Source: Planctomycetaceae bacterium
GTDB lineage: Bacteria; Planctomycetota; Planctomycetia; Pirellulales; UBA1268
Reading direction: 5' to 3'
DNA: 64,000 bases
NCBI GenBank assembly: GCA_947459185.1
Contig: CANHCU010000003.1
Span: forward strand, 4,870 to 68,869
Below the pieces are notes generated by a model that was not told the origin of the DNA, made no database searches, and saw nothing but the letters and a program-made list of their open reading frames with translations. The position numbers and the translations under genes were made by a program. Below are positions 42,455 through 64,000 of the stretch, piece by piece; positions within the stretch are counted from its first letter, which is position 1, and every line of letters begins with the position of its first letter.

Positions 42455-42467
42455 ACCAATGCCTTCA

Positions 42468-48988: not shown

Positions 48989-49014
48989 CCTCCCTGAATA
49001 CGGTCACAGGGAGG
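48989..49014 (+). terminator. Hairpin just after yidD (terminator candidate, no U-tract)
   Basis: CCTCCCTG (10 nt) CAGGGAGG forms an 8-bp stem. Confidence 0.3.
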
Positions 49015-49157: not shown

Positions 49158-49162
49158 CTGTC

Positions 49163-49987
49163 TTACGCTGGCTTCTGCACCAGTTCCAGCAGTCGGCCGG
49201 GCGAACCCATGATGTTGTAGCCGGCGTCGACGTGGAGAATCTCGCCGGTGATGCCGAACGAGTCCTTCGAGAGCAGCCAGGCGCCGGCCTTGCCGACCTC
49301 GTCCTGCGTGATGTTGCGGCCCATCGGCGCCATCCGCTCATAGAGGCCGAGCATCTCATCGACACCGGCGCCGCGGCCGGCAAGTGTGCGGACCGGGCCG
49401 GCACTCACGGCGTTGACGCGGACGCCAGCGGGCCCGAGGTCATAGGCCATGTACTTCACGCAGGCGTCGAGCGTTGCCTTGCAGACGCCCATGATGTTGT
49501 AGCCGGGGACGACCTTCTCACCGCCGAAGTAGGTGAGCGTGAGGATCGAGGCATCTTTGGAGAGGATCTTGCGGCAGAGGCGGCCAACCGCCAGCAGACT
49601 GTAGGCGCTCGTCTCCATGGCGGTGCGGAAGCCCTCGCGGCTGCAGTCGGTGGTTTCCCCCTTGAGATCGTCGAGCGGGGCGTAGGCGATCGAGTGCACG
49701 ACGAAGTCGATCGTGCCAAACTCCTGCTTGGCGCGGTCCATGACGGAAGCGATCTGCTCGTCATTGGAAACGTCCATCGGCACGAGGAACTTCGCGTTTG
49801 GCTCGGGATCGGTGAGCTGGGCCACGCGGCGGCGATTCCGCTGCCGCTCGTCATCGGGGCGGTCGGGGAGGTGGGAGAAGCCGATCTGGCCGCCGCCCGC
49901 AAGAATTTCCTTGGCGATGGCCCAGGCGAGCGAGTGATCGTTGGCAACGCCGAGAACCAGACCCTTCATTCCATCGAACCTGCCCAT
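49163..49987 (-). CDS. fabI: Enoyl-ACP reductase FabI
   Basis: GLVLGVANDHSLAWAIAK, FVVHSIAYAP, YNIMGVCKATLDA (Y-x6-K) and ILHVDAGYNIMG. Start at ATG 49987. Confidence 0.9.
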   Translation of the reverse strand: MGRFDGMKGLVLGVANDHSLAWAIAKEILAGGGQIGFSHLPDRPDDERQRNRRRVAQLTDPEPNAKFLVPMDVSNDEQIASVMDRAKQEFGTIDFVVHSIAYAPLDDLKGETTDCSREGFRTAMETSAYSLLAVGRLCRKILSKDASILTLTYFGGEKVVPGYNIMGVCKATLDACVKYMAYDLGPAGVRVNAVSAGPVRTLAGRGAGVDEMLGLYERMAPMGRNITQDEVGKAGAWLLSKDSFGITGEILHVDAGYNIMGSPGRLLELVQKPA

Positions 49988-50117
49988 GGGAATCCTCTGA
50001 GAAAGTGGTGTCGTGTGCGGAGGTGGAAATGTAGCGGGTCTGCCGGAATCGCTCAACGCGGCGTGTGGGCTGCGGGCCTTGCCGGGCGATGATCCGATGG
50101 GTAAAACTGTCACGGAA

Positions 50118-50191
50118 GCCTCGTTAGCTCAATTGGTCAGAGCATCTGACTCTTAATCAGAGGGTTCTTGGTTCGAGTCCAAGACGAGGCA
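50118..50191 (+). tRNA. tRNA-Lys (CTT)
   Basis: GCCTCGTTAGCTCAATTGGTCAGAGCATCTGACTCTTAATCAGAGGGTTCTTGGTTCGAGTCCAAGACGAGGCA folds as a 74-nt cloverleaf with anticodon loop CTCTTAA. Confidence 0.95.
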
Positions 50192-50213
50192 CTTCGGCAG
50201 ACGTGCAGCATCC

Positions 50214-51167
50214 GTGAAGAAGGCTCTGATCGTCGGCGTGTCGGGGCAGGATGGCGGCTATCTTGCCAGCCTGCTGTTCGAGAAGGGCTACGAAGTCCAC
50301 GGAGCGTCGCGAGACCCCTCGCGGGCCTCCTTTTCCGCCCTCCGGTCGCTGGGCATCGCCGACTGTGTCGTCATCCACGCGATGACGCCGACCGATTTCA
50401 GCAGCGTGCTCTCGCTCCTGCGGCACGTCGAGGCCGACGAGATCTACAACCTGTCGGGGCAGTCTTCGGTCGGCCTGTCGTTTCGCCAGCCGCTGGAAAC
50501 CTTCGACAGCATCACGATCGCGACGATGCACCTACTCGAGTGCATCCGGCTGCTCGAGAAGCCGGTGCGGTTCTACAACGCCGGGTCGAGCGAGGTCTTT
50601 GGCAACACGCCCACCCCGGCCGACGAACTGACGCCGTTCCGACCTCGCAGCCCCTATGCCACGGCCAAGGCGGCCGCCCACAACGCCGTCGCCAACTACC
50701 GTGAGGCCTACGGGCTCCACGCGAGCACCGGCATCCTGTTCAACCATGAGTCGCCGTTCCGCCCGGAGCGGTTTGTGACGAGCAAGGTGGTGCAGGCGGC
50801 CCGTCGCATCGCCGCCGGCTCGCGGGAGCGACTGTCGCTCGGCAACCTGAGCGTGCAGCGCGACTGGGGCTGGGCACCGGAATACGTCGATGCGATGTGG
50901 CGGATCGTGCAGCACGAGCCAGCCGACGACTTCGTGATCGCCACCGGCCGCAGCCACTCGCTGCGGGAGTTCGTGGAGAGGGTGTTTGCCTGCGTGAACC
51001 TCGACGCCCGCGACCACGTGGACGAGCATGCGGAGCCGGCCCGCCCCTCCGATATCGCCGTGAGTGCCGGCAATCCTGCCAAGGCGCATGCCGAGCTGGG
51101 ATGGAAGGCGACGTATGACCTCGACATGATCGTGCGGGAGATGGTGCTTTCCCGCGATGGAGCGTGA
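50214..51167 (+). CDS. gmd: GDP-mannose 4,6-dehydratase
   Basis: KKALIVGVSGQDGGYLASLLFEKGYEVHG, YATAKAAA and FNHESPFRPERFVTSKV. The GTG start is 22 nt after tRNA-Lys. Confidence 0.9.
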   Translation: MKKALIVGVSGQDGGYLASLLFEKGYEVHGASRDPSRASFSALRSLGIADCVVIHAMTPTDFSSVLSLLRHVEADEIYNLSGQSSVGLSFRQPLETFDSITIATMHLLECIRLLEKPVRFYNAGSSEVFGNTPTPADELTPFRPRSPYATAKAAAHNAVANYREAYGLHASTGILFNHESPFRPERFVTSKVVQAARRIAAGSRERLSLGNLSVQRDWGWAPEYVDAMWRIVQHEPADDFVIATGRSHSLREFVERVFACVNLDARDHVDEHAEPARPSDIAVSAGNPAKAHAELGWKATYDLDMIVREMVLSRDGA

Positions 51168-51184
51168 AGCGGTCCCGCAGCGTT

Positions 51185-51559
51185 TATCGAGGAAATGTTG
51201 GGATCAGGCGGCGTGTCATGCGGGTGACAAATGTCCGCAGCCGTGTGATTGCTGGCGTACGAAACCTGAGGAGCCGATGCTGGCGGGCCCTCAGGCTTGG
51301 CATGCGGTCATCCGCAGCCGCGATGCGGGCGAGGTCGGCCAGCACGCGACCTGCGAGCACCTGCGACCGCTGGGTTCGATTGGTATCGATCGGCGAGCAC
51401 CAGCGTGATGGGGTCGTGCACCGTCACGTCGGCATGGGGTGGCGGGCCGGAACCATCCAGCAGACGGCTGAAGAGTTCTGACTCGTAGCGGCCGATGCAT
51501 CAGCTGGAATGGCGATTGAAGCGCATCTCGATGGCGGTGGCATCGAGGCCGACTCTCAT
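51185..51559 (-). pseudogene. Decayed GT4 glycosyltransferase remnant
   Basis: The ATG overlaps the upstream stop (ATGA). It reads MRVGLDATAIEMRFNRHSS*CIGRYESELFSRLL; the GT4 N-terminal pattern is MRIGIDAR....GIGRY..LL. There is an in-frame TGA at codon 20, the frame is lost further on, and only about 375 nt remain before gmd. Confidence 0.6.
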
Positions 51560-52446
51560 GGGTTCACCCGCAGCAGGGATCCTACCTTCCGCCAAGCGTC
51601 CGACGCGGCACCAAGAATTCTGCCGATGAGGCCGTAGCGGGTGAGCGCCAGCCTGCGCATCAGTGGCTGAATCTCGGCGTCTAAATCGGCAGGAAGGGGA
51701 GTGGTTCTGGCCGGGTCGAGGCCATCGTAGGCGACCGTGACCAGCTTTTTGGCCCGGTAGCCGCTGAAGGCAGATTGCACCACGTAGGCGTAGGAGCCGA
51801 CGTCGGTCAGCGGATGCCAGGGATGATAGAGGCGTATGGAGGGATCCCACTTCACGGCCAGACCGAGATTCTTGAAACGGATATACATGTCTGTGCCGTG
51901 GGCGTTGATGTGCGACCCGAAGGCCGGATGCTGCTCCCACCCGTTGATCGCGACGATCCACTTCTTGCGGACGCTCATGCACGCGCCGTAGTTCGTGGTG
52001 TTGCCAATCTTCGCATGCGCCTGGAGGTGGGCGAGATCCCAGTCATCGCGATGGACCGCCTGTGGCTCGTCGTGCCGGTAGAGAAACACGACCAGATCAT
52101 CCGTTTTCTGATGCTCCTCCCAGAGAGACTGTAGGCCAGTCTGCTCGGGCACGACGTCGCCATCGGCATACACGATCAACTCGCCGCGACTCGCCCGCAC
52201 GCCCGCGTTGCGACAGTAGGCGGAATGATAGGAGCCCTCCCGGCCCAGTGTGATGATCCGAAGGTTGGGATAGCGGGCCGCCCGCTCCTCGAGCGCCGGA
52301 TCGACTCGGTCGGAATGCTCCACCCAGATGATTTCGTACTGATCGGCAGGAAGTGTTTGATTGGCAAATGCGTCGACGGCATGAAACCGCTCGCGGAACG
52401 AACCATCGATGAGGATGACGGAGATCAACAGTGGTGGGGCCGTCAT
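51556..52446 (-). CDS. Glycosyltransferase family 2-like (GT-A fold)
   Basis: LISVILIDGSFRE, YEIIWVEHSD and VYADGDVV (DxD). Start at ATG 52446. Confidence 0.6.
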   Translation of the reverse strand: MTAPPLLISVILIDGSFRERFHAVDAFANQTLPADQYEIIWVEHSDRVDPALEERAARYPNLRIITLGREGSYHSAYCRNAGVRASRGELIVYADGDVVPEQTGLQSLWEEHQKTDDLVVFLYRHDEPQAVHRDDWDLAHLQAHAKIGNTTNYGACMSVRKKWIVAINGWEQHPAFGSHINAHGTDMYIRFKNLGLAVKWDPSIRLYHPWHPLTDVGSYAYVVQSAFSGYRAKKLVTVAYDGLDPARTTPLPADLDAEIQPLMRRLALTRYGLIGRILGAASDAWRKVGSLLRVNP

Positions 52447-52453
52447 GTCGGTG

Positions 52454-53662
52454 TCACTCCTCTCGAATCCACCGGGAGAGATAGCGGTGCAACGAATGTG
52501 GCTGGGCTTCTTCCCAGGCGGGGTAATCCCATGCGGCCTGGCCGGGTGACCGGGCGAGATCATGCAGCAGAGCATGCCACTCGGGCCAGGATTCGCCGAC
52601 CACGTGCACGCCGGGCGGAACATCGATCGCCCACGTGGGGTGAGCGGGAGTGAGCGACGGAACACCGGCACAGGAGAGTTCCGTCAGTCGGGTGACCGAG
52701 CCAAAGCCGCTGAACTGCGGCACGACAACTGCCCGTGCCAGAGTCAGCAGGCGGTCGAGGTCCGGCTGGCTGACCCATCCCAAGGCCTCGATGCGGGCCG
52801 TCCCGCGAAGGTCGAGGGTGTCGGTGCCCATGCCCGCGATCACGAGTCGAACCCCGGGAGGCAGCCCATGTGAGCGTGCTTGTGCCAGGAACCATTCGAA
52901 CGCACGGCGGGTGGTGCCGTGCATGGCGCTGCCAAGCAGGAGAAACAGCTCGGGCTCCTGTTCCACCTGCAGTCGCGCATTGCGAATCGCCTCGAGCCTC
53001 GTGCGGATGGCGCCGACCGGAAGATAGGGATAGTGCTCAGCCTCCAGACCTAAGCCGCTCACCAGGCCTGTCTCGACTTTCGAAATGAACATCCGGCCAG
53101 CGCAGCGTTGCAGGAGCCCGAGTTCGTTGGCGAAGTCGACCAGATGGGTGCGCAAACCCCACGACCCGTGGGCGTCGGCCGCGGCGAGGTCGAGCGATTC
53201 GAGATTGTGTGTGATCGCGATGACTGGCACGTCGAACTCCCTCGCGACGGCCACAACGCCGATGAAGCGGGCGTCGTCGATCACCGTGACACACGGCCGG
53301 GGCAGGCGTTCGAGCAGCGCCCTGTATTCCTTCACAAAGCCCCGTGGCGTGAACGTGCGCGAGGAATAGCCGGTGCCATGAAAGACCCCCAGGGGATTCT
53401 CCAGACAGTCGTTGATCCGTCGCACGACTCTGCTGGTGAGTGTTGGGCGTGTGGAGGCCGCCTCTAGTCCGGCATGCCTGGCCCGCCAGTCCATCAGACT
53501 TAAGGTATGCACCTGACCCGCGCCACACGCCGACTTGAGATCGTGCTCGATCTGGTAGGTCCGATGCCTGCCGCCGGGGCCGATGTCGGCGGGGAGTGGG
53601 CGAGCGACGAAGACGATGGATGGCATGGGGCGGTTGACGCGGGAGAAATTCGCTATGTCCAA
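52454..53662 (-). CDS. GT-B-fold glycosyltransferase-like protein (family 1-like, divergent)
   Basis: The C-terminal half LLLGSAMHGTTRRAFEWFL..VRLVIAGMG..ALGWVSQPDLDRLL..VVVPQFSGFGSVTRLTELSCAGVP resembles a GT1 C-domain, but the canonical EX7E motif is not obvious. Confidence 0.4.
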   Translation of the reverse strand: MDIANFSRVNRPMPSIVFVARPLPADIGPGGRHRTYQIEHDLKSACGAGQVHTLSLMDWRARHAGLEAASTRPTLTSRVVRRINDCLENPLGVFHGTGYSSRTFTPRGFVKEYRALLERLPRPCVTVIDDARFIGVVAVAREFDVPVIAITHNLESLDLAAADAHGSWGLRTHLVDFANELGLLQRCAGRMFISKVETGLVSGLGLEAEHYPYLPVGAIRTRLEAIRNARLQVEQEPELFLLLGSAMHGTTRRAFEWFLAQARSHGLPPGVRLVIAGMGTDTLDLRGTARIEALGWVSQPDLDRLLTLARAVVVPQFSGFGSVTRLTELSCAGVPSLTPAHPTWAIDVPPGVHVVGESWPEWHALLHDLARSPGQAAWDYPAWEEAQPHSLHRYLSRWIREE

Positions 53663-53701
53663 GATGCGACGGCCGCCGTTTGCTCCAGATTCAGAACCCC
53701 G

Positions 53702-54667
53702 TCACTCCCAGCGAGGATCTGTCTCGTAGCCCAGTTTGAGGAGCAGGTCATTATAGTTCCGCTTGAAATACTCGACGTGCACCGGTTCGAAGTGGTTTCG
53801 CCAATCCCCCGCGATTCCCTTTCGGTAGTGATTGTGGGCATCTTCGACGCCGCGTTCACGGCCGCCCGCCTTCCGTGAAAAGCGGTGTCGGTCCACGATC
53901 GTGGGAACAGCTTCGATAGCCATGCTTCGGTATCGTAGGCCGTGCTTCCAGGCCACGTTCAGCGGATAGAGGCGATAGGGATCGGGCCCGTGGACCCGCG
54001 CTACGGCCGGAGATTCTCCTTCAGGCGTCCGTGGGAACATCCAGTGCCGAAGGTGACGCCGTGCCATCCGTTGCGCACGGCCGACGATGATGCCGACCAG
54101 GCTACCAAGCCGTTCCCCGGAGCTGCTCTGCGGCAGGTGCGTGAGACCGAAGTGCTCGACGATCGTTACAACGTGCTCGACAGGCGACGCAATCATGTCT
54201 TCCATCCGGAGTTCGAGCACTCCGGGCTGGGTATAATCCCAGTTAGCCATGTCGGCGAGCACGCGGCGGCTGAACTCCATCTCGAGCAACAGCCCGGCCG
54301 ACTTGTCGGTGGATTGCAGCTGGCGGCGATGTTCAGCCAGTCTCGGCCATGTTGCGAGGCTGTGGGAGTGAAGGTGCGAGAAATACGCCGACACAATCAG
54401 GTCTCTGGGATCCCGGATCACGTGAAATCCACGCAGCGGCGGCAGCAGCTTGACCTGGCCGATGTCGGCATTGGAGTAGACGAGGACGTCGGGCTTGAAG
54501 CAGCGGACGAGCGCACCCAGATCGGCGAAGTCCCACTCCTGTATTCGTGACACCTCGAACATCCGCAGGTAGGTCGTCGCGCAGATGTCGGCCAGAATGG
54601 CCTTGATCCACTGCGAGGCGCACTTGTGGTGGCCGAAGTAGGCACACCGTGGAGGTTTCGTGGTCAC
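53702..54667 (-). CDS. Sulfotransferase (1 of 3)
   Basis: VIRDPRDLIVSAY (3'-PB-like) and HYRKGIAGDWRNHF (typical sulfotransferase C-terminal motif). The 5'-PSB region is the atypical FGHHKCAS. GTG 54667 is preceded by AGGAGG and overlaps the upstream stop (GTGA). Confidence 0.65.
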   Translation of the reverse strand: MTTKPPRCAYFGHHKCASQWIKAILADICATTYLRMFEVSRIQEWDFADLGALVRCFKPDVLVYSNADIGQVKLLPPLRGFHVIRDPRDLIVSAYFSHLHSHSLATWPRLAEHRRQLQSTDKSAGLLLEMEFSRRVLADMANWDYTQPGVLELRMEDMIASPVEHVVTIVEHFGLTHLPQSSSGERLGSLVGIIVGRAQRMARRHLRHWMFPRTPEGESPAVARVHGPDPYRLYPLNVAWKHGLRYRSMAIEAVPTIVDRHRFSRKAGGRERGVEDAHNHYRKGIAGDWRNHFEPVHVEYFKRNYNDLLLKLGYETDPRWE

Positions 54668-55617
54668 GCCGCGCCTCCTGGGGAGACAGTAGAAATCAGA
54701 CTCCCCTGTCCGAATCGCCGAAGCAGGTAGTCCTTGATCCCCAGCATGGTAGCCCGGAAGAGCGCCGTTCGCTCCTCTGGGGTCCGGCCCAATCGATAGC
54801 ACCTTGCACGGGCCTCCCATAGGAACAGCATCATGCGCGGCACGAGCAGCAGAAGGAAGGAGTGCCGTTCCAGAGACAGGAGGCCGTTGCGCGTGAAGTA
54901 ATACTGATAGGTCGTGCCACGCTTGCCGCCGAATGTCTTCGATCCGCCGTGCCAGAGCCGTGCTGTGGGGACGTATCGCAGCGTCATCCCCGCCTCGCAG
55001 GCCCTCAGACTCCAGTCGACATCCTCGAACAGCAGAAAAAATCGGTCGTCGAACGGGCCGATGCGTTCGAACGCCTGCCTGGTGGCGAACAGTGCGCAGC
55101 CGGTGATCCAGTCGGTGTTCCCGGGCTGGTCAAACTCCGGGCCATCGGGCTGGCCGAGGCCCACATGCACGGCGGGGCCTCTTCTCAAGATTCGGCCCCC
55201 GGCGAAATAGATCGTGTCGGGCTCTGACTCGAAGAGACATTTCGGTACGGCGGCGGCCGTGTTGGGATGGGCCATGCAGTCGGCCAACAGCTCGGCCACA
55301 CACTGAGGGTCGAACACGACGTCGTTGTTGACCACGAAGATGTGGGTGGCCCCGCTGGCGAGCGCGTGGCGAATCCCGACGTTGTTGCCGCCCGTATAGC
55401 CGAGATTGCGGCCTGTCTGCAGCAGGGTGATGTCGGGATGCGCCTGACGGATCGCGGCCTCGGAGCCATCCTCCGAGCCGTTGTCGACGACGATGAGATC
55501 GAGCGAAACCGTCTGCTCCTTCAGGCTCGACAGGCAGGAAAGCGTGTCAGCCTTGCCGTTCCAGTTGAGGATGATGACGGTCACGTGGGTGTTCATGGGC
55601 TGCGGACCGGCCAGCAT
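54664..55617 (-). CDS. Glycosyltransferase family 2
   Basis: VTVIILNWNGKADTLSCLSSL, LIVVDNGSEDGS and NLGYTGGNN. Start at 55617 or 55596. Confidence 0.85.
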   Translation of the reverse strand: MLAGPQPMNTHVTVIILNWNGKADTLSCLSSLKEQTVSLDLIVVDNGSEDGSEAAIRQAHPDITLLQTGRNLGYTGGNNVGIRHALASGATHIFVVNNDVVFDPQCVAELLADCMAHPNTAAAVPKCLFESEPDTIYFAGGRILRRGPAVHVGLGQPDGPEFDQPGNTDWITGCALFATRQAFERIGPFDDRFFLLFEDVDWSLRACEAGMTLRYVPTARLWHGGSKTFGGKRGTTYQYYFTRNGLLSLERHSFLLLLVPRMMLFLWEARARCYRLGRTPEERTALFRATMLGIKDYLLRRFGQGSLISTVSPGGAA

Positions 55618-55872
55618 GGCGAGGTCAGATTCGTTCCAGGATGGTGAGCCTGTTGTTGTTCAACCCGTTGGTGCCTGGCCGGATGACCTCGACCCGGTCC
55701 ATGCCGACGGACGACGTTTTCCCTTGCGCGCCGCTTTTTCGATGATAGCTTGGGCCTTTGGCCCCGAAATAAATCATCAAGAACCCCCCATGGGGGGTGG
55801 CGTGGGCGATTATTTGCCAAGCCCTCCACCGCCGGGATGCTCCTTGCCTTGGCTAGGAGAGGCGACAACGGG

Positions 55873-56787
55873 TCATGTGTAGCGGGCGTAGCCGAGGTGC
55901 CGCATGGTGTTGGCCAGCCGGTCTTCGATGCCGCGGCCCATGGAGTGGTCGATGTAGTCCGACCAGAGTTTGTCGTTCTCTTTAATCGGTCCTGAGAGCA
56001 GCGGATCCTGACGCCAGGAGTCGAGGCCGGGCGTCCGCAGGGCCACGCAGTTCGCGTCGTACGGCTCGCCGATAAACGAGCAAATCCGGGCGAACGTGTC
56101 TGGCGGCGCAGCGGTGAAGTCTTCGTAGCGAATCAGCAACAATCGGGAGGCGAGTCGCTCGGCCTCTGCGATTGTCGCCTCGTAGGCCTGGGAGAACGTC
56201 AGTGGCCCCACGCTCTGCAGCCAGCGGATGCTCGGCGAATCAGCGGGCTCTGTCTGCACGGCGACGCCGAGCCGGCGGCGATAGGAGCTGTAGACGTCGA
56301 GGGGATGACGGATCATGCAGAGAATCCGGGCGTCGGGGAATGCCGAGAGGATTTGCGGGAGCCGATGGATGTGGTCGGGCGTCTTCTCGACGATCCGCTG
56401 CACGCCGCGGGCGCGGGCCGCATGCAAGAAATAGGCCCGCAGGGCGGCGTCGTTTTGGCCGAGCCGCCATGCCAACGCCCGCGCCCACCGGCTTCGGTCG
56501 GTCACGCGGCGGAGCAGGGGGGCGGCGGGCAGTCGGCCGCTCCATTCCGGCGGCAGCGAGCGGAGGAGCTCTTCCTGTTCCTTTGCATCGTGCAGCAGGT
56601 AATCCCAGGCCTTGCCCTGCCGCTCGCGGATGCTTGCAGGGTTGAGAAACACCCGCGATTCGGTGAGATCGAAGCCCCCGGGGCTGCGGGTCGGCTTGAA
56701 TCGCTCGTGGGCCTGGAGCGCAAGGTAGAGCCGACTGGTGCCGCTCCGCGGAACGCCGACGATGAAGACCGGGCTGGTGGTGGGCAT
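55873..56787 (-). CDS. Sulfotransferase (2 of 3)
   Basis: VFIVGVPRSGTSRLY (5'-PSB), CMIRHPLDVYSSY (3'-PB) and LLIRYEDF. Confidence 0.75.
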   Translation of the reverse strand: MPTTSPVFIVGVPRSGTSRLYLALQAHERFKPTRSPGGFDLTESRVFLNPASIRERQGKAWDYLLHDAKEQEELLRSLPPEWSGRLPAAPLLRRVTDRSRWARALAWRLGQNDAALRAYFLHAARARGVQRIVEKTPDHIHRLPQILSAFPDARILCMIRHPLDVYSSYRRRLGVAVQTEPADSPSIRWLQSVGPLTFSQAYEATIAEAERLASRLLLIRYEDFTAAPPDTFARICSFIGEPYDANCVALRTPGLDSWRQDPLLSGPIKENDKLWSDYIDHSMGRGIEDRLANTMRHLGYARYT

Positions 56788-56805
56788 TGCGTGGCGCCGT
56801 GCGAG

Positions 56806-58074
56806 TCAGGGGCGAAACATCTCTCGCGTCGAGCGTGTCATGAAGGGGCGTTCGAACCAGCGATGGAAGAGCCAGGCAATCACCAGACTGCCCGGGATGC
56901 CGAGAGCCAGCAGCGTGGCAAGTCGCGGCGCCGGCGGCAGGGCGAGTGCCTGGGTGGTCCACTTCAGAAGCACGATCCACTGCAGATGGGTGAGGTAGAG
57001 ACTGTAGCCGCACAGGCCCAGCGACAAGAGCCAGCGTGATTCGAGTATGCCGCACACGCGGCTCGCAACGGGACCGGTTCGCGACGATGCAGCGGCGACG
57101 CTCGGGTGTCCGACCGCCAGCCAGACGATGCCTGAAGCGACACAGATGCCGGCAAGAACGTCGGGGATCCAACGGATGCGTAGCGGAAAATGATTGTAGG
57201 GCACCGCAACCCACCGCGTCCCGTCTTTGGCCAAGACGGTCGCGTCGAGACGCCACACAACGATGCAGAGGATCACGACCAGCCCGGCCGTGATGGCCCC
57301 CCAGTTGGCCTTACGCATCGACCGGCACAGCGGCGCTGAACCGAACGCCAGGACGGCGGCCACCATGCCCGAGGCAAACACCGGAATCAGCCAAGGGAAC
57401 TGGTAAAATATGATGTCGCGGGCACAGAGTTCCGTGAGCACGGCCGCGATTGCCACGCAGAGAGCCACGGCCGTCCACAGGCCATAGCGATGCCAAACGG
57501 GAACGAGCACCAGCGCAAACAGCAGATAGATCTGCCACTCGCACGCGATCGTCCAGAACACACCCGTCATGCCCGCCGCCCACTTGCCGTCAAGGTTGTG
57601 GACAAGAAACAGGTGGGAGACAACACTGGGAATTGTCGAGTCGCGGGCGACCATGCGTGTGAGCTTTCGCCAGGGGGCGATGCCATAGAGGGCAAGCCCC
57701 CGCTCGACCGCCAGAAAGAAGGCCATCGACAGGAAGTAGGCCGCATAATACGGCGACAGAATGCGGATTGCGCGGCGGCGAAGGAAATCGAAGAGCCCGC
57801 CCGGCAACTGGCCGCCATGAAGCACCACCGGCATCGCCAGGAGAAAACCGGAGAGGACCAGGAACGCCGGCACCGCCAGATGGCCGTGCATGATCGGGGC
57901 CATGAGCAGGGCGATCGCCGGCCGCGAACGGTCGATCCCCAGCCCTGCCACAAGATGAAAAAGAACCACCGTCAACGCCAGCACGCCGCGCAGCCCGTGG
58001 AGAAAATCGAGTCTGGGTCGCTGAAGCTGCTCGTGATCCACGCTACGCCGTCGTCCGTTCCATGCGGGCCTCAT
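56806..58074 (-). CDS. Acyltransferase family 3 membrane protein (O-acyl/acetyltransferase)
   Basis: RLDFLHGLRGVLALTVVLFH plus about 10 predicted TM segments. An alternative GTG start lies at 58041. Confidence 0.8.
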   Translation of the reverse strand: MRPAWNGRRRSVDHEQLQRPRLDFLHGLRGVLALTVVLFHLVAGLGIDRSRPAIALLMAPIMHGHLAVPAFLVLSGFLLAMPVVLHGGQLPGGLFDFLRRRAIRILSPYYAAYFLSMAFFLAVERGLALYGIAPWRKLTRMVARDSTIPSVVSHLFLVHNLDGKWAAGMTGVFWTIACEWQIYLLFALVLVPVWHRYGLWTAVALCVAIAAVLTELCARDIIFYQFPWLIPVFASGMVAAVLAFGSAPLCRSMRKANWGAITAGLVVILCIVVWRLDATVLAKDGTRWVAVPYNHFPLRIRWIPDVLAGICVASGIVWLAVGHPSVAAASSRTGPVASRVCGILESRWLLSLGLCGYSLYLTHLQWIVLLKWTTQALALPPAPRLATLLALGIPGSLVIAWLFHRWFERPFMTRSTREMFRP

Positions 58075-58079
58075 CGTTT

Positions 58080-59354
58080 ATGAAAATCCTACTCTCGCTC
58101 GATGAGATGTCACCAGGCGGCGGGCCGAAGTTCATGATGAACCTCGGCCAGCATCTGGTCGCCGCCGGGCATGACGTCACCGTCTGGGTCGAGCGGAAGG
58201 GGGAATGGTGGCCCGAGTTGGCCGGTCTGGGCGTCTCCACCGACTGCCCGCCGCTCAATCCCAACGACAGCCTCGTTCACCGGGCCGGGCTGGTGGCCGC
58301 CTCCTGGAGTAGCCAGCGGTTCGACGTGGTATTTGTCAATGTCAGCGGGTTCAATCGACTTGCCCACTGTGCCTGCCACCTGCTGAGCGACGATATCGCG
58401 GTGGCGTATGTGCTGCACGGCGACTGGCGGGATCTCTACGACCTGGCCGAGATAGACGTGCGGGCCTGGAACTGTGCGGTGGGCGTCAGTCCCAAGGTTC
58501 GCGAAGGCGCCTCAGCCCGCTTTCCTACCAAACCCGTGATCGGGATCGACAACGGCATCGAACTGCCCACGGCGGCCGAGCGGCAATCCCGCCGTGCCTG
58601 GGAGCTGCCGCTGCGGCTCCTTTTTGTTGGCCGTCTGATCGACTCGCACAAGGGCGTTTTTAGACTGCCCATGATCCTCGCAGCCTGCCGGGCCCGCGGT
58701 CTGCAGGTTACGCTTTCGGTGATTGGAGATGGCCCGGATGGACGGCGACTGACGCGGCTTTTTGCCACGGAAGGAGTGGGCGACCTTGTGACGATGATGG
58801 GCATGCAGCCACCATCGGCCATCGCCGCAGCGATGCGGGATCATCATGTCTTCGTGTTTCCGACCAACACCGAAGGGATGCCACTAGTCGTTCTGGAGGC
58901 CGAGGCCAACGGCTGTGTGCCGGTGGTCACGCTGCTGCCGGGCATCACCGATGTCGCGGTCGAGGATCGGGTGACGGGTCGGCTGATGACGCTCGGCAAT
59001 ATCGAGGAGTGTGTCGATCACATCGCCGACATGATGAATCGCGACGTCTGGCAGCGGCACAGCGACGCCGCCATGGCCCGCACCGAGCGGCTTTTCTCGC
59101 TTGCTGCCATGGGCCAACAGTATGAGTCGCTCGCGGCGGCGCTGGCCCGGGGTGAGCATCCGATCGAGCGGCCCTACAATCGTTCGCGGGCACTCTCCGA
59201 CGTGCCGTTCATCTGGCAGGACCATCTGCCCAGGGCCGTATTGCGGTGTCTGCCGATCAAGACGGTGCGGGAAGTGCGGCGGCGGAAGAACAAGGCGGTG
59301 CGTGCCATCCGGCGGATGAAACTCTTCAACCGCGATCGGCCGAAGCCAGGTTGA
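58080..59354 (+). CDS. Glycosyltransferase family 4 (GT-B)
   Basis: MKILLSLDEMSPGGGPKF, LLFVGRLIDSHKG and VFPTNTEGMPLVVLEAEANGCVPVV. Confidence 0.85.
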   Translation: MKILLSLDEMSPGGGPKFMMNLGQHLVAAGHDVTVWVERKGEWWPELAGLGVSTDCPPLNPNDSLVHRAGLVAASWSSQRFDVVFVNVSGFNRLAHCACHLLSDDIAVAYVLHGDWRDLYDLAEIDVRAWNCAVGVSPKVREGASARFPTKPVIGIDNGIELPTAAERQSRRAWELPLRLLFVGRLIDSHKGVFRLPMILAACRARGLQVTLSVIGDGPDGRRLTRLFATEGVGDLVTMMGMQPPSAIAAAMRDHHVFVFPTNTEGMPLVVLEAEANGCVPVVTLLPGITDVAVEDRVTGRLMTLGNIEECVDHIADMMNRDVWQRHSDAAMARTERLFSLAAMGQQYESLAAALARGEHPIERPYNRSRALSDVPFIWQDHLPRAVLRCLPIKTVREVRRRKNKAVRAIRRMKLFNRDRPKPG

Positions 59355-59386
59355 CGGCCGAAAGACCATTTGCCAGAGCAGGCCTC

Positions 59387-60307
59387 ATGCCCAAGCCCAA
59401 CTTCCTGATTGTCGGCGCCCAGAAGTGTGGCACCGACGCGCTCTATCACGCGCTGCAGCAGCATCCGGACATCGCCATGAGTCCGAACAAGGAGCCGTTC
59501 TTCTTTCTCATGGACGGCAGGCTGCCCGACTACCGATTGCCCGGGCCGCGGTATACGAACCGGCTGGTCTACGACTGGGACGCCTACCAGCAACTCTTCG
59601 CCGGGGCCGAAGGCAAGCGGGCGATCGGTGAAGCCTCCGCGATCTATCTGAGCAGCTACTTTCCGGAAAAGACCGCCGCACGAATTCACGAACGTATTCC
59701 AGCCGCGAAGCTCATCGCGTTGGTGCGTCAGCCGGCGGAGCGGGCCTATTCTGCCTACAACTTCTACCGTGCCCGCGACTTCGAGTCGCTGGCGAGCTTC
59801 GCGGAGGCGCTCGCCGCCGAGCCGGCGCGGATCCAGGCCAACGATACGCCCGACTTCCGGTATCGGATGAACGGTTTTTATGACGCCAACCTGAAGCCGT
59901 ATTACGCCATTTTTCCCCGCGAGCAGATCCAGGTCTATCTCTTCGAGGAATGGAACGCCGATCCCGCCGGCACGCTGCGAAGTATTTTCCGCTTTCTGGA
60001 CGTCGACGAAAACATGCCGATCGGTGTCGAACGAAGGAATGTGACCCACCGGTATCGGAGCCAGCAGTTGCACCGCTTCCTCGCTCGTCCGGGGCGATTT
60101 GGCAAACGGCTGCGCGGCTTCCTGCCGGCCGGCTTCCGGTCGCGGCTGGATCGCTGGAATCAGATGCAGCCGCCGCCGATGCCCCCCGAACTATGGCGTG
60201 AACTGACCGGAGGCTACCGGGAGGATATCCTCAACCTCCAGGCAAGGATCGGCCGAGACCTCTCGCACTGGCTGAAGCATGACCGCCCGGGAGCAGTGCG
60301 GCGGTAG
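59387..60307 (+). CDS. Sulfotransferase (3 of 3)
   Basis: PNFLIVGAQKCGTDALY (5'-PSB), LIALVRQPAERAYSAY (3'-PB) and VYLFEEW. Confidence 0.8.
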   Translation: MPKPNFLIVGAQKCGTDALYHALQQHPDIAMSPNKEPFFFLMDGRLPDYRLPGPRYTNRLVYDWDAYQQLFAGAEGKRAIGEASAIYLSSYFPEKTAARIHERIPAAKLIALVRQPAERAYSAYNFYRARDFESLASFAEALAAEPARIQANDTPDFRYRMNGFYDANLKPYYAIFPREQIQVYLFEEWNADPAGTLRSIFRFLDVDENMPIGVERRNVTHRYRSQQLHRFLARPGRFGKRLRGFLPAGFRSRLDRWNQMQPPPMPPELWRELTGGYREDILNLQARIGRDLSHWLKHDRPGAVRR

Positions 60308-60338
60308 TGGCTGTCGGCCGGTCGCCGAAGACAATCGA

Positions 60339-61565
60339 ATGAACATCGCCATCTGTCTCAACAAGGTGCAGCCCCGCGACGGTACGAGCCACTTCGCGAC
60401 CCAGCTCGGTGAGATGCTGATGGCGGCCGGGCACGAAGTCACGCTGGTGGCGGGCATGAGGTCGCAGCCCCACGAACTTGCGCACCTTCCCGTGGGCTTG
60501 GCCTACGTGCACACGCGGCCTGGACGATGGGACAGCATGGTCCGGGACCTGGCCAACATCGGAGGATTGTTTCGGCGGGCCCGGTTCGACGTTGCCTTCG
60601 TCTGCCTGGGCGTGCCGCCACGTCATCTGGCTCACTTCCTCCACCGGCTCCCGGACTCGACCGCGATCGTGCCGATCGTCGTGACCGACAGGCTTATTGT
60701 TTACGAGCCATTGGCGCGGAGTGCGGCAGCGTGGAACGTTGCGGCAGCGATCTGCCCGCGACTGGTGGGTGAGCTCCACAATCGCGTGCCGGGCAAACCC
60801 GTACGGCTGATGATGACCGGCGTGCCGCATCCGACCGACGCCGAACTGGCGACCCGGGCCGCCCATGGCACGCCGCTGCGGCTGCTCTTCGTTGGCCGTC
60901 AGGCCGGTCGCAAGAACGTTCTCATGCTGCCGGCGATTCTGGCGGCGTGTCTCCGTCGCGGGATCGATGCCACGCTCACGATATGCGGCCATGGCCCCGA
61001 TCACGAGTCGTTGGTGGATGCGTGCCGCTCCGCGGGCCTGTCACACCTGGTCGAGTTTCCGGACGTGCCCGAGCAGAAGGGGCTCTATGAGACCTATCGG
61101 CAGCACCACGTGCTCCTGCTGACGTCGAGCTATGGCGAGGGACTGGGGCTCGTGTTGCTGGAGGCTCAGGCCAACGGCTGCGTGCCAGTGGCCTCACGCC
61201 TCCAGGGAGTCTTCGACTTCGCAATCGAAGAAGGCGTGACTGGCCTGTTGGCGGAGATCAAGAACGCGGACGACTTCGCCGAACAGATCGCCACGCTGAC
61301 CGCCCCGGATCGTTGGCAGCAGTTGAGCCGCGCCGGCGTCGCCCGGACACGCGAACTGTTTACCTACGAAGCGATGGCACGAGACTATCTCGCGCTCTTG
61401 GCTGATCTTGAGCGTGGCGACTATTCCGTGCCAAGGCCACGTTCAACGCTGGCACGGCCTTCGCTCCGCTGGACGGCCTACCTGCCGCCGCCGGTTCTGG
61501 AACGGTATGCCCGTCTGCTGCCCAGTTGGCAGCCTGTCGTTCCACCCGATCCGGACCCTCCATGA
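60339..61565 (+). CDS. Glycosyltransferase family 4 (GT-B)
   Basis: MNIAICLNKV, LLFVGRQAGRKN and LLTSSYGEGLGLVLLEAQANGCVPV. Confidence 0.85.
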   Translation: MNIAICLNKVQPRDGTSHFATQLGEMLMAAGHEVTLVAGMRSQPHELAHLPVGLAYVHTRPGRWDSMVRDLANIGGLFRRARFDVAFVCLGVPPRHLAHFLHRLPDSTAIVPIVVTDRLIVYEPLARSAAAWNVAAAICPRLVGELHNRVPGKPVRLMMTGVPHPTDAELATRAAHGTPLRLLFVGRQAGRKNVLMLPAILAACLRRGIDATLTICGHGPDHESLVDACRSAGLSHLVEFPDVPEQKGLYETYRQHHVLLLTSSYGEGLGLVLLEAQANGCVPVASRLQGVFDFAIEEGVTGLLAEIKNADDFAEQIATLTAPDRWQQLSRAGVARTRELFTYEAMARDYLALLADLERGDYSVPRPRSTLARPSLRWTAYLPPPVLERYARLLPSWQPVVPPDPDPP

Positions 61566-63310
61566 TGCGGCGAGAATCCTCGATGCAACGCGGCGGGTTA
61601 CCGGGCTTCGGACGGCTGACGGCGATCGCGCAGCGAGTCCACCGCCGGTTGCAGCGACGTTCCTACGATTATTGCGTGTGGTCTGAATGGTTCGGCAAGC
61701 GGTGTGGCAGTGGCGCGCATCGTGCGCTGCCATCCCAGGCCCACACGCCGCTGTTTTCGATCCGTATGGGCGTGTCGACGGTGCAGCCGCGGCACCTGCG
61801 CCGTGCGGTGGAGTCGGTGCTGGCCCAGCGGTATCCGTTCTGGAAGTTGTGCATCGACGTTGACGCAGCCGCATCGCCGGCCGTGCGCAGAAGTCTGACG
61901 GCATATCAGGGACGTGACGCGAGGGTGATCGTACGGCACGACGCCGTTGAGCCGACGACGGCGGCCACATCGCCGGTCCCGGCCGACGAGACATTCATCG
62001 TCTGGCTGCACCCGGATGACGCCCTCGCTCGCGACGCCTTGGAGCAGGTGGCGCAGGCCGTCAGCGACCACCCAGACGTCCACCTGCTTTATGGTGACGA
62101 AGACTCGCTGGGGCGATTCGGCCGCCGTGTGCAGCCCCGGTACAAGCCTGCCTGGAGCCCGCACCTGCTCCGGAGCCACAACTTCATCGGCCGCCCGTGG
62201 TTCATCCGATCCGATCTCTGGAGTAGGCTCAATGTTCCGCCATTCGGCTGCAACGAGGACCTTGAGCACGACCTCCTCCTGCAGGCCGCTGAGCAGGTGC
62301 TTCCCGGAGCCGTGCATCACATCCGGCGTGTGCTCTATCACCGGCGGCTCGAAACGCGGACCGGCGAGGCCGATTCCCGGAACAGCGCCCGTCGAACAGA
62401 GTCGTCACAGTGGGCTGTCGAGGCGCATCTAAGTCGCTCTGGCATCGCCGCCACGGTCGAGTCGATCCCCGGCTGGCCTGGCTTCAATCGCATCGCCTAC
62501 GCCGTTGAGCCGAAGCCGCGGGTGAGCGTGATCATTCCCAGCCGCGACAAGGTGACATTGCTCAAGCGATGCATGACCGGTCTCCAGCAACAGACCGACT
62601 ATCCGGCGATCGAACTGGTCATACTCGACAACGGAAGCGTCGAGCCCGACACGCTGGCCTACCTATCGGCCCTCGCTGGGCAGGCGAACGTTCAGGTGCT
62701 GCGCGTGGATGCACCATTCAACTTTTCGGCCCTGTGCAACCGAGGGGCATGGGCGGCCCACGGCGACATTCTCTGTTTTCTGAACAACGACATGGAGATC
62801 ACGCACCCAGAGTGGCTCCACGAACTGGTCGGTCTCTCCGTGCAGCCTGAGATCGGGGCCGTCGCTCCCTTGCTACGCTATCCTGACGGTCGCATTCAGC
62901 ATCTCGGGATTCGAGTCGATCCTCCCTGGCCGCGGGTGATCGGCGACGGCTGGCGGGAGCCTTTATCGCGACAGGATGCGTCGCGGCTGCACGTGGTGCA
63001 TGATCTGTCGGCGGTCAACGGCGGTTGCCTCGTAACGCGACGCGACGTGTTTACGGCAGTGGGAGGTTTCGACGAGGCCCTGCCGGTAGCCTACAACGAC
63101 GTCGATTTCTGTTTCAGCGTGCGCAAGGCCGGCTTCTGGGTCGTGGTGACCCCCTTCGCCGAACTCAACCACGAACTCTTCGCGTCGCGACGGGACGTGC
63201 CGAAGCCGGACCGGCGGCGCGACTGGCAGGATGGCATCCGCTACCTTCAGGTCAAGTGGCCTGATCAGTGGGGGAGCGACCCGTATCTGACTGTTTCCGA
63301 TCGAGCATAA
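61562..63310 (+). CDS. Two-domain glycosyltransferase family 2
   Basis: Domain 1 has FSIRMGVSTVQPRHLRRAVESVLAQRYPFWKLCI..WLHPDDAL. Domain 2 has VSVIIPSRDKVTLLKRCMTGL..LVILDNGS and FLNNDMEI. The start overlaps the upstream stop (ATGA). Confidence 0.8.
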   Translation: MMRRESSMQRGGLPGFGRLTAIAQRVHRRLQRRSYDYCVWSEWFGKRCGSGAHRALPSQAHTPLFSIRMGVSTVQPRHLRRAVESVLAQRYPFWKLCIDVDAAASPAVRRSLTAYQGRDARVIVRHDAVEPTTAATSPVPADETFIVWLHPDDALARDALEQVAQAVSDHPDVHLLYGDEDSLGRFGRRVQPRYKPAWSPHLLRSHNFIGRPWFIRSDLWSRLNVPPFGCNEDLEHDLLLQAAEQVLPGAVHHIRRVLYHRRLETRTGEADSRNSARRTESSQWAVEAHLSRSGIAATVESIPGWPGFNRIAYAVEPKPRVSVIIPSRDKVTLLKRCMTGLQQQTDYPAIELVILDNGSVEPDTLAYLSALAGQANVQVLRVDAPFNFSALCNRGAWAAHGDILCFLNNDMEITHPEWLHELVGLSVQPEIGAVAPLLRYPDGRIQHLGIRVDPPWPRVIGDGWREPLSRQDASRLHVVHDLSAVNGGCLVTRRDVFTAVGGFDEALPVAYNDVDFCFSVRKAGFWVVVTPFAELNHELFASRRDVPKPDRRRDWQDGIRYLQVKWPDQWGSDPYLTVSDRA

Positions 63311-64000
63311 AGAGCACGCCACCGATCAGGCCGCTGAGGATCGTGCAGGCCAGCCAGAGCAGGCCGATGGCCACTGCCCGCTCCGGCAGCACGTCATACG
63401 GCTTGAGTAGCAATTCGAGCCCCTGCTCGCGGATGCCCAGGCCGAGCATGCTGATCGGGAGCACCATCGCCAGCGTGAGAATGGGCACCACGGCGAACCA
63501 CACGGCCATCGGCAGCGACACGCCCAACGACCGGGCGACGAGTGCCACGGCCACCGAGCCGCCCATCTGGATCAGCAGGCTCCAGGCCACCGCGCGGGTC
63601 ATCAGGCCGGGCTGCTGCTGGTAGGGCAACAATCGGGCGAGGAATTGCCGCGCCGCATGCTGTTCGGGGATGAGTGCCAGGAGCCGATCGATCGAGCCGA
63701 CGCCGAGCCAGAAAGCCAGCATGGCCGCTCCGAGCAGTGCCGCTCCCACGGCGAGCGCGGCGGGAAGCGAAAGCCCACCGCGTGTGGCCAAGAGGGCGGT
63801 GCCTCCGAGCACACCCACCGCCGCCAGGCCGGCGAGTCGGTCGGCGACGATGGTGCAGCCGGCCAGCAGCCGGCTCGATGTCGAGTCGGCCAGCCTAAAT
63901 GCCTTGAACACGTCGCCGCCGATCGATGACGGCAGGCAGAGGTTGAAAAACGTGCCCTCGAAGAACCGCCAGAGAAACGTACCGAGCGAGTGGGGGAAGC
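63252..64000 (-). CDS. Flippase-like / lysylphosphatidylglycerol-synthase TM-region family membrane protein (UPF0104-like), 5' end off-window
   Basis: The frame is open to the window edge. NLCLPSSIGGDVFKAFRL is followed by multiple TM segments. Its 3' end overlaps the convergent GT2 gene by 59 nt. Confidence 0.6.
   Translation of the reverse strand, partial: FPHSLGTFLWRFFEGTFFNLCLPSSIGGDVFKAFRLADSTSSRLLAGCTIVADRLAGLAAVGVLGGTALLATRGGLSLPAALAVGAALLGAAMLAFWLGVGSIDRLLALIPEQHAARQFLARLLPYQQQPGLMTRAVAWSLLIQMGGSVAVALVARSLGVSLPMAVWFAVVPILTLAMVLPISMLGLGIREQGLELLLKPYDVLPERAVAIGLLWLACTILSGLIGGVLFMLDRKQSDTGRSPTDQAT

Follow-up and report, generated by a model that had tools for sequence, protein, structure and literature searches.

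To our knowledge, sulfated polysaccharides of bacteria were long thought to occur almost exclusively in cyanobacteria and a small number of marine taxa, and the sulfotransferases (STs) acting on bacterial polysaccharides are barely characterised. Planctomycetota are best known as degraders of sulfated polymers, with large sulfatase repertoires, and sulfation of glyco-conjugates dependent on 3′-phosphoadenosine-5′-phosphosulfate (PAPS) is known from single-ST systems such as NodH, NoeE, LpsS and KpsS in rhizobia and Stf0/MmpL8 in mycobacteria. The locus described here lies in a 64,000-nucleotide stretch of the genome of Planctomycetaceae bacterium (assembly GCA_947459185.1, contig CANHCU010000003.1, forward-strand positions 4,870 to 68,869; hereafter the window, with positions counted from its first letter), where STs are encoded among glycosyltransferases (GTs) from 50214 to the window end and beyond. 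The cluster probably serves surface-glycan biosynthesis in an uncultured freshwater planctomycete of the Pirellulales, building a polysaccharide or oligosaccharide on a lipid carrier. Judging from the gene content, the product is most likely a sulfated, O-acylated heteroglycan, and probably also O-methylated and 6-deoxyhexose-containing.

Multi-ST polysaccharide clusters have already been published, and the window locus is a further example of them and not a new kind of system. The synechan xss cluster of Synechocystis sp. PCC 6803 encodes two STs of distinct subfamilies, eight GTs and Wzx/Wzy (Maeda et al. 2021; PMC8205485), and heterologous reconstitution of synechan has been achieved in Synechococcus (PMC13125312). 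As in the window locus, GT2 and GT4 genes are interleaved with STs of distinct subfamilies in one locus, and assembly and sulfation of a lipid-linked repeat unit are proposed to occur in the cytoplasm before export. Unlike the window locus, xss encodes Wzx, Wzy, PCP and an XssQ/R/S regulatory set, whereas the window locus has three STs (four with its flank), a PF03706 protein, an AT3 acyltransferase, gmd and an FkbM methyltransferase on a planctomycete chromosome, and is known from its genes alone. The capsular polysaccharide locus of Vibrio sp. KMM 8419 comprises 80 genes, including three STs, an acyltransferase, an ABC transporter and cysNDC, and its product is an acylated, sulfated, rhamnose-containing capsular polysaccharide defined by nuclear magnetic resonance (NMR) (PMC11641403). 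Three STs, GTs, an O-acyltransferase and a deoxyhexose supply are common to both loci, and the Vibrio product is nearly of the class put forward for the window in the original prediction, an annotation made earlier from the DNA letters alone; cysNDC, the ABC transporter and an NMR-solved product do not, however, apply to the window locus.

Within the Planctomycetes-Verrucomicrobia-Chlamydiae (PVC) group, Pontiella sulfatireligans F21 carries a putative sulfated-glycosaminoglycan cluster with GT2, GT4, methyltransferase, ST and gmd genes, and a sulfated exopolymer was detected chemically (PMC7356697). The likeness is that of a PVC degrader of sulfated glycans with such a cluster, but Pontiella is a marine anaerobe whose cluster contains one of the three STs of its genome, along with a transaminase and GtrA that are absent from the window locus. 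The wps-1 exopolysaccharide cluster of Actinoplanes missouriensis includes two STs of different families and an S-adenosylmethionine methyltransferase (PMC13390465); one of its STs is heparan-sulfate-ST-like, as is ST-C of the window, but wps-1 belongs to a Wzx/Wzy/Wzz pathway in an actinomycete and its knock-outs have a sporangium phenotype. Rhizobial glycan sulfation by KpsS and NodH is summarised in PMC11625862. The rhizobial and mycobacterial systems share with the window locus Sulfotransfer_1/_3-type enzymes, including a weak match of ST-B to NoeE, and a nearby MMPL transporter, but they act on defined lipo-oligosaccharides or trehalose, the matches found here fall far short of equivalog cut-offs and the MMPL gene does not stay linked to the locus in all relatives. 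ST genes have previously been noted in some Planctomycetes metagenome-assembled genomes (MAGs; PMC9723792), and sulfated glycoconjugates have been reported from anammox granules (cited in PMC7356697 and PMC10483923). With the xss, Vibrio, wps-1 and Pontiella clusters as precedents, and with homologues of ST-A often encoded beside further STs, GT4 enzymes, Wzx and Wzy, the assertion that a multi-ST assembly line is not a described system does not stand. Specific to the present case are the freshwater Pirellulales host, four unrelated ST types in one locus, a locus without canonical export or PAPS genes, and strain-level swapping of modifying enzymes.

Genes in the window, which has a GC content of 62-70%, were selected by GC content at third codon positions and by frame and then compared with the genes called on the parent metagenome contigs. 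The part of the cluster that lies in the window, from 50214 onwards, comprises Gmd, three GT2 enzymes, two GT4 enzymes, a divergent GT-B protein, a GT4 remnant, an AT3-family acyltransferase, a flippase-like protein and three STs. Every item of the earlier gene list was recovered at or near its given position, and Pfam or NCBIfam backs each assignment in the window with the exception of the 390-aa GT-B protein. The three STs are ST-A (SULT-like, Sulfotransfer_1-type; 53702-54667, minus strand), ST-B (Sulfotransfer_3-type; 55873-56787, minus strand) and ST-C (heparan-sulfate-ST-like; 59387-60307, plus strand). All three score above the Pfam gathering cut-offs (22 bits for PF00685 and 27 bits for PF13469), with a partial match in the case of ST-A, and each retains both PAPS-binding motifs. 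They are mutually dissimilar, as the original prediction had held, the lowest pairwise BLASTP E-value being 0.005. The 3′-phosphate motifs of these three enzymes and of ST-D, encoded in the flank, are collinear with those of solved STs. In all four the PAPS loop stands only a few residues from the N-terminus and hydropathy predicts no membrane segment, so they are predicted to be soluble cytoplasmic enzymes.

The match of ST-A to PF00685 (30.5 bits) is confined to profile positions 218-251, a C-terminal stretch, and its family assignment therefore needed alignment and fold evidence. ST-A carries RDPRD at residue 85 and KGIAGDWRNHF at residue 283, and aligns with SULT2A1 in the Protein Data Bank (PDB; E = 4e-5) across RDPRD..VS and RKGxxGDWxNHF. 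More than 1000 homologues were found. When 38 diverse members were aligned, FGHHK, GFHVIRDPRD..S and HYRKG..GDW.NHF proved invariant; this includes K15 of the 5′-phosphosulfate loop, FGHHKCAS, and R85 and S93 of the 3′-phosphate motif, IRDPRDLIVS. The same alignment reveals an insertion of about 60 aa specific to the clade of the window protein. An AlphaFold2 model of ST-A (predicted local distance difference test, pLDDT, 81) was compared with the PDB by Foldseek, and the 50 matches listed all have the ST fold (50/50; probability 1.0, query-normalised TM score 0.33-0.46), nearly all of them solved with PAPS or its desulfated form PAP. The position equivalent to the SULT catalytic His (K-T-H-L, about 20 residues upstream of the Arg of the 3′-phosphate motif) reads Y-x-N-A in ST-A, with N66 and A67 invariant, and the other invariant His residues of the family, H13, H14, H82, H98 and H102, could substitute as the catalytic residue.

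ST-B matches PF13469 over the full length of the profile (102.9 bits, E = 4e-29), with PRSGTS at residue 13 and IRHPLD at residue 159; the PRSGTS and IRHPLD..SS residues of these segments, VPRSGTS and IRHPLDVYSS, align with the motifs of the CurM/OLS sulfotransferases, and there is a weak match to the NoeE model (E = 9e-6). ST-C matches both PF13469 (48.3 bits) and PF00685 (41 bits) and aligns end to end with the bacterial sulfotransferase 3rnl in the PDB (E = 3e-57), so that the ST fold, modelled for ST-A, is given for ST-C by full-length homology. Over about 200 residues it also aligns with NDST1 (5e-10) and the 3-OSTs (~1e-7). ST-C has GAQKCGTD at residue 10 and VRQPAERAYSAY at residue 113; the Lys of the QKCGT 5′-phosphosulfate-binding loop (AQKCGTD) is conserved, as are the Arg and Ser of the 3′-phosphate-binding motif (RQPAERAYS; VRQPAERAYS). 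A Glu of ST-C is aligned to the Glu of the NDST1 FEKSANYF segment, which we take to be the catalytic base of NDST1. Unlike the heparan-sulfate STs that it resembles in these features, ST-C is a predicted soluble cytoplasmic bacterial enzyme, and as the locus lacks a heparosan synthase, a UDP-glucose dehydrogenase and an epimerase, a true glycosaminoglycan product is not indicated. Taken together, the profile, motif and fold evidence supports ST-A, ST-B and ST-C as bona fide PAPS-type sulfotransferases, genetically interleaved with GTs. The outcome that the original prediction named as refuting it, proteins that fail ST profiles or are devoid of PAPS-binding residues, did not occur.

The original prediction described the locus at 50214-64000, where the genes are as it listed them; the locus runs about 6 kb past the window end. 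The flank was read on contig L007, which reaches window-equivalent position 73310, 9.3 kb beyond the window. After the flippase-like gene it encodes, in order, a truncated GT87-like protein, a GT4 enzyme (GT4c), ST-D, a 169-aa methyltransferase-like protein, an FkbM methyltransferase, a 333-aa protein, an SRPBCC-like protein, YceI and an MMPL transporter. ST-D, of the Sulfotransfer_2 type (L007:14827-15771, window-equivalent 66388-67332, minus strand), matches PF03567 at 23.1 bits against a cut-off of 22. Its motifs FVHVPKTGGITL and VRDPVERSVS are collinear with those of HS6ST, and its phosphosulfate loop reads VPKTGGIT. Nearly all of its 67 homologues are metagenomic. A search of PDB sequences with ST-D gave nothing significant, and the assignment consists of the Pfam match and the motifs.

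The genetic coupling of STs to GTs was read directly in the sequence. GT2b (54664-55617, minus strand; PF00535, 55.7 bits) overlaps ST-A by the four nucleotides GTGA at 54664-54667, and GT4b overlaps GT2c by ATGA at 61562-61565; these junctions show that ST-A/GT2b and GT4b/GT2c are translationally coupled. A third 4-nt overlap, ATGA at 51556-51559, joins the stop of GT2a to the start of the GT4 remnant, and the overlaps noted in the original prediction are thus real. ST-C lies between GT4a (58080-59354, plus strand; PF13692, 74 bits, and PF00534, 71 bits) and GT4b (408 aa, 60339-61565, plus strand; PF00534, 81.6 bits), the start of the latter being called differently in two assemblies, with an alternative at 60279. 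ST-D is coupled to GT4c by a 4-nt overlap in relatives, and the FkbM methyltransferase comes after it. Between GT2b and ST-B lies a gap of 255 nt (55618-55872) with just one 50-aa open reading frame (ORF); here the relative L009 encodes an additional GT2 of 291 aa, and a match over 12 residues (E = 0.002) hints at a deletion scar.

The other GTs are GT2a (296 aa, also in the parent contig calls; 51556-52446, minus strand; PF00535, 34 bits), the two-domain GT2c (582 aa, 61562-63310, plus strand; PF00535, 76 bits over two stretches) and the 390-aa protein (52454-53626, minus strand, with an alternative TTG start at 53662). GT2c has NCBIfam matches at residues ~61-165 and ~316-540. It was considered as a glycosaminoglycan synthase, a reading that is not supported, the PDB giving only generic GT-A relatives and heparosan synthase B at E = 0.003 in a locus without Ugd or an epimerase. 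The 390-aa protein gave nothing above threshold in Pfam or NCBIfam and nothing significant in the PDB sequence search, and it has only 85 homologues, a few of which carry PF13692, a GT4-type domain. Its AlphaFold2 model (pLDDT 90.3) was matched by Foldseek to glycogen synthase 3l01 (E = 1e-8), PglA, PimB′ and WaaG as well as to UDP-GlcNAc 2-epimerases, and this predicted fold agrees with a divergent GT-B glycosyltransferase. A hydropathy scan found no hydrophobic segments in the GTs. The AT3-family O-acyltransferase (422 aa, without an SGNH domain; 56806-58074, minus strand; PF01757, 67 bits) has hydrophobic segments along the whole protein in 13 overlapping windows and is predicted to be multi-pass. 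The annotated starts of the divergent AT3 and GT4a genes are just 5 bp apart (58074-58080), so that either their promoters lie inside neighbouring coding sequence or the start codons are mis-set; a sigma-70-like match at 9 of 12 positions was seen at 58113-58086 on the minus strand, and the regional number of such matches equals chance expectation.

Gmd (50214-51167, plus strand) matches PF16363 at 335.6 bits (E = 5e-100) and shows the GSSEVFG, YATAK, NHESPFR and RDWGWAPEYV signatures. It scores 307 bits against TIGR01472, below the equivalog cut-off of 415, which suggests a short-type Gmd. The 333-aa protein of the flank (L007:17517-18518, window-equivalent 69078-70079, plus strand) is a candidate fucosyltransferase-like protein with the motif HLRRGDY; its match to PF01531 (GT11) is weak (14.7 bits, E = 0.018 over 22 residues) and it has no match among PDB sequences. 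HLRRGDY may correspond to motif I of the alpha-1,2/1,6-fucosyltransferases, which would fit gmd; as a single motif it is weak evidence.

Further copies of the cluster genes are present on metagenome contigs from JGI and ENA: ST-B is 100% identical on nine contigs, and over 12,439 bases aligned with the window a JGI contig shows 7 differences. The nearest match among species-representative genomes is a 'Pirellulales bacterium' MAG from Lake Mendota (L008), with 84-99% amino-acid identity, in which neither the gene order nor the gmd/fabI boundary differs from the window. A MAG contig from Lac Pavin (L009, JAPLIB010000012.1; 69-84% amino-acid identity) keeps, in order, GT2c, GT4b, ST-C, GT4a, ST-B, GT2b, ST-A, the GT-B protein and GT2a, with its extra GT2 between ST-B and GT2b. 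This contig is labelled 'Cyanobacteriota bacterium' though it is syntenic with the Pirellulales contigs over at least nine cluster genes, and the label reflects either mis-binning or transfer of the whole locus. On L014 (ST-D 84% identical) the order is MMPL, YceI and the SRPBCC-like protein; the FkbM methyltransferase amid several unassigned ORFs; and ST-D, GT4c, a full-length GT87-like gene, the flippase-like gene, GT2c, GT4b, ST-C, GT4a and AT3. The P0262 contig (ST-D 76% identical) keeps ST-D/GT4c, GT2c/GT4b/ST-C/GT4a and an ST-B-like gene, and L012, at about 50% identity, still has ST-A, ST-B, the GT-B protein, GT2a, GT2b and GT4a together. GT2a is 94%, 80% and 66% identical in L008, L009 and L012, and GT4a 84% and 56% identical in L009 and L012. 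The GT2b/ST-A junction is likewise tight in all three relatives, where the matches meet at 949 (L008), abut at 9983/10001 (L009) or overlap at 10001-10004 (L012).

Pairwise ratios of nonsynonymous to synonymous substitution (dN/dS) against relatives are 0.23-0.26 for ST-A, 0.22 for ST-B and 0.16-0.22 for ST-C, with all four STs falling within 0.16-0.26; they are 0.19-0.23 for GT2b and the GT-B protein and 0.10 for gmd (against L008). All four STs are therefore under purifying selection. The accessory genes are less stable. In L009, AT3 is degraded to about 95 N-terminal codons (~5407-5690) and a 230-aa ORF stands in its place (~6030-6720, plus strand); this ORF has the motifs HIPKTAGTTL and ILREPFARTVSV and 27% identity to ST-D, with no match in Pfam. 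It looks like a swap of an acyltransferase for a putative sulfotransferase, which would make the modification pattern strain-dependent. Surface-glycan loci usually present just this picture, here a stable core of STs and GTs within a variable periphery.

As the nearest solved relatives of ST-A are small-molecule SULTs, the neighbourhoods of its distant homologues (34-45% identity) were examined at 26 non-redundant metagenomic loci of at least 7 kb. A Pfam scan of the 132 ORFs within 4 kb of these homologues found 22 GT4-type enzymes, 13 further Sulfotransfer_3 proteins, five Wzx-type proteins, four GT2 enzymes, four ABC_tran proteins, four NDP-sugar dehydratases or epimerases, three Wzy_C proteins and several methyltransferases. 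The scan superseded an earlier tblastn census with the cluster's own proteins, which was too insensitive (a GT in 8 of 29 loci). The census supports a carbohydrate role for the ST-A family and suggests that multi-ST glycan loci are common and widespread in environmental bacteria.

Several PAPS-type STs that are interleaved with GTs, conserved and held under purifying selection make a sulfated, acylated and probably deoxyhexose-containing glycan the most economical product. In the pathway that we propose, the soluble GT2, GT4 and GT-B enzymes would assemble a lipid-linked oligosaccharide on the cytoplasmic side of the membrane, after a priming transferase encoded elsewhere, and Gmd would provide GDP-4-keto-6-deoxymannose for fucose, rhamnose or a related residue through a follow-up reductase outside the locus. 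Four PAPS-dependent STs of four sequence types would sulfate specific residues while the glycan is cytoplasmic, with PAPS supplied by genes elsewhere in the genome, and the FkbM-type enzyme would methylate the glycan. Each ST may act on the residue added by its partner GT, the adjacent genes being ST-A and GT2b, ST-C between GT4a and GT4b, and ST-D and GT4c. The lipid-linked product would then cross the membrane by means of the PF03706 flippase-like protein, of an MsbA/HepA/PglK-type ABC exporter, or of both, and would be acylated outside the cytoplasm by the AT3 membrane enzyme. Such an exporter adjoins the same core in two relatives and not in the window: on L012 it stands with a GT87 enzyme and scores 258 bits against the MsbA, 246 against the HepA and 234 against the PglK model, all under the equivalog cut-offs, and the L009 locus ends in a truncated HepA-like ABC gene (340 bits to the HepA-family model). 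The proposal of a pathway for a sulfated, acylated, deoxyhexose-containing glycan is plausible and has good support from homology and genomic context, and its claim to novelty is not supported; it is a solid annotation-level prediction and not a new mechanism.

Several points weigh against this reading. The pathway is incomplete as seen: genes for PAPS synthesis, a priming phosphoglycosyltransferase, Wzx, Wzy, Wza/PCP/OPX and an ABC exporter, sought with families such as PF01943/PF13440, PF04932, PF02706, PF02563, PF02397 and PF00953, were found neither among the scanned ORFs of the window nor in the next 9.3 kb. The scan outside the cluster covered about 40 ORFs at 45-50113, with a few small ORFs left out, and these are housekeeping or typical planctomycete genes. 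The absence of such genes from the window had been noted before, and the expectation that they may lie beyond 64000 is contradicted by the flank. No GDP-fucose synthase, Rmd or Per accompanies gmd. ST-D barely clears its Pfam cut-off and sits outside the window, and for ST-A the canonical SULT catalytic His is not confidently placed in the alignment and the nearest solved relatives are cytosolic small-molecule enzymes. The locus shows decay in the window strain, with a GT4 pseudogene and a truncated GT87-like gene, and it comes from an uncultured organism represented by sequence alone, from which substrates and sulfation positions are not predictable. Gene content does not decide between a polymer, a lipo-oligosaccharide and a protein-linked glycan; a glycan built on a lipid carrier is favoured over a glycolipid or a glycoprotein.

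It is unlikely that the product is a sulfated glycolipid or lipo-oligosaccharide, with a membrane lipid decorated by the GTs, sulfated by the STs and exported through the flippase-like protein and the products of lipid-handling genes downstream; the logic would be analogous to that of mycobacterial sulfolipid export by MmpL8. The lack of a Wzy, a chain-length regulator or an outer-membrane exporter among the scanned window ORFs and in the flank would fit such a product, as would the LPG_synthase_TM/flippase-like protein itself (333 aa, 63252-64253, minus strand; PF03706, 114 bits), a multi-pass protein of lipid-flippase type that matches TIGR00374, whose frame is open to the window end and which is intact on the parent contigs. 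The SRPBCC-like protein, YceI and the 765-aa MMPL/HAE3 RND transporter form a lipid-handling trio directly after the locus both here (L007:18498-21749, window-equivalent 70059-73310) and on L014 (L014:2537-6521). MMPL and YceI are missing, however, from L012 and from the P0262 contig, the latter retaining ST-D, GT4c, GT2c, GT4b, ST-C and GT4a, and the MMPL protein can be assigned only generically to the HAE3/MMPL transporters, far under every equivalog cut-off, that of HpnN included. At least eight GTs would also be a large number for the head group of a glycolipid, an MsbA/HepA/PglK-type exporter and GT87 occur in relatives, and distant ST-A homologues stand beside Wzx and Wzy. The trio is retained only for this minor reading, its linkage being lost in two relatives and its transporter being neither HpnN- nor MmpL8-like at the equivalog level. 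A hopanoid HpnI/HpnL/HpnN module was rejected, GT2c scoring 18.6 bits against HpnI (cut-off 310) and MMPL 50 bits against HpnN (cut-off 752), as was HpnL for the PF03706 protein, which matches the generic TIGR00374 model only.

Transfer of a sulfated oligosaccharide to surface proteins, for which the sulfated N-glycans of haloarchaea are a model, is somewhat less probable still. Planctomycete envelopes are protein-rich, and many GTs of single-addition type, no polymerase found and a candidate flippase for a lipid-linked oligosaccharide are what protein glycosylation would call for, as are the PglK-like exporters of relatives, at 234 bits under the cut-off of the PglK model. No GT-C enzyme or oligosaccharyltransferase was found in the window or flank, however, save for a GT87-like fragment: a multi-pass membrane ORF of 199 aa (L007:13022-13621, window-equivalent 64583-65182, plus strand), with an in-frame stop just upstream, that is weakly similar to a 444-aa GT87 (GT-C) protein on L012 and corresponds in position to a 440-aa gene on L014. 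This ORF is probably a truncated gene for a periplasmic glycosyltransferase in the window strain. Genes for target proteins are not evident, and the same set of genes fits an ABC-type or Wzx/Wzy-type polysaccharide pathway whose remainder is encoded elsewhere.

We consider it very unlikely that the locus is decaying or silent in the window strain and yields no sulfated product despite its intact-looking ORFs. The GT4 pseudogene (~51308-51559, minus strand) is a deletion scar that matches, at 83.6% nucleotide identity, the initial 146 nt of a 415-aa GT4 whose gene is intact in L008 (L008:6074-7321), and the translation of the scar, MRVGLDATAIEMRFNRHSS*CIGRY..., has an in-frame TGA at codon 20 in addition to internal deletions. 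Relative to L008 the window has lost about 4.3 kb, namely an AT3-SGNH acyltransferase, the remainder of the 415-aa GT4 and a second GT4, all genes that are also present in L009. To this are added the truncation and in-frame stop of the GT87-like gene, the 255-nt gap where L009 carries its extra GT2, and counts of sigma-70 promoters and intrinsic terminators at 49000-64000 that equal the shuffled expectation. Against decay, the remaining in-window genes (12/12) have uninterrupted frames, the dN/dS values of the STs, gmd, GT2b and the GT-B protein are low, near-identical copies of the cluster occur in several independent metagenome assemblies, and gain and loss of accessory genes are normal in active glycan loci. 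The notion that the STs act on small molecules, peptides or lipids and that the GT genes are mere neighbours, for which one could cite the cytosolic small-molecule SULTs nearest to ST-A among solved structures and the polyketide (CurM/OLS) and tyrosyl-protein STs nearest to ST-B at weak E-values, is scarcely credible in view of the translational coupling of ST to GT, the ST-GT pairs kept in relatives down to about 50% identity, the GT4, Wzx, Wzy and further STs enriched around distant ST-A homologues, the kinship of ST-C with heparan-sulfate STs and of ST-D with HS6ST-type carbohydrate STs, and the lack of polyketide synthase, nonribosomal peptide synthetase or ribosomal-peptide (RiPP) genes.

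On the favoured reading of a surface glycan built on a lipid carrier, an abundant uncultured lineage of lake planctomycetes keeps a conserved glycan cluster with four sulfotransferase types. If the product were confirmed, sulfated-glycan production would extend to the Planctomycetota and to freshwater, the four ST-GT pairs would be candidate carbohydrate sulfotransferases for glyco-engineering, and the finding would bear on the abundance of planctomycete sulfatases. A bolder version, which we hold to be a long shot, is that Pirellulales with a strain-variable set of four to five unrelated STs, each tied to its own GT, write a dense and variable sulfation onto a methylated, acylated, fucose-type glycan, a fucoidan-like polymer in low-sulfate lakes. 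In that event planctomycete sulfatase repertoires would serve in part for the turnover of glycans of self or kin, and lakes would receive organosulfur from the polymer, a source so far unrecognised.

The remainder of the window holds a few features of other kinds. Two long ORFs that match no family, 15791-18448 (plus strand, 885 aa) and 18615-20687 (minus strand, 690 aa), lie antisense to mutS and dnaX and are high-GC shadow ORFs; ORF length alone is no evidence in this genome. A tetrahydromethanopterin-linked one-carbon gene set typical of planctomycetes occupies 31521-44778 and includes Fae (32915-33412), an MtdA-like dehydrogenase (33455-34423) and the MCH cyclohydrolase (41450-42619) together with two ATP-grasp proteins, a PTPS-like and a CitG-like protein, with HflX, RsgA and an FHA protein interspersed. 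A fragment of a resolvase-family recombinase at the window start (45-692) adjoins the gene of a secreted-type protein of 1375 aa (791-4918, minus strand) that has beta-helix repeats and a CBM6 module. Immediately downstream of SMC, a 680-aa protein (28834-30876, minus strand) unites a region resembling FlgI, the flagellar P-ring protein, with HEAT/Armadillo repeats, an unusual combination.

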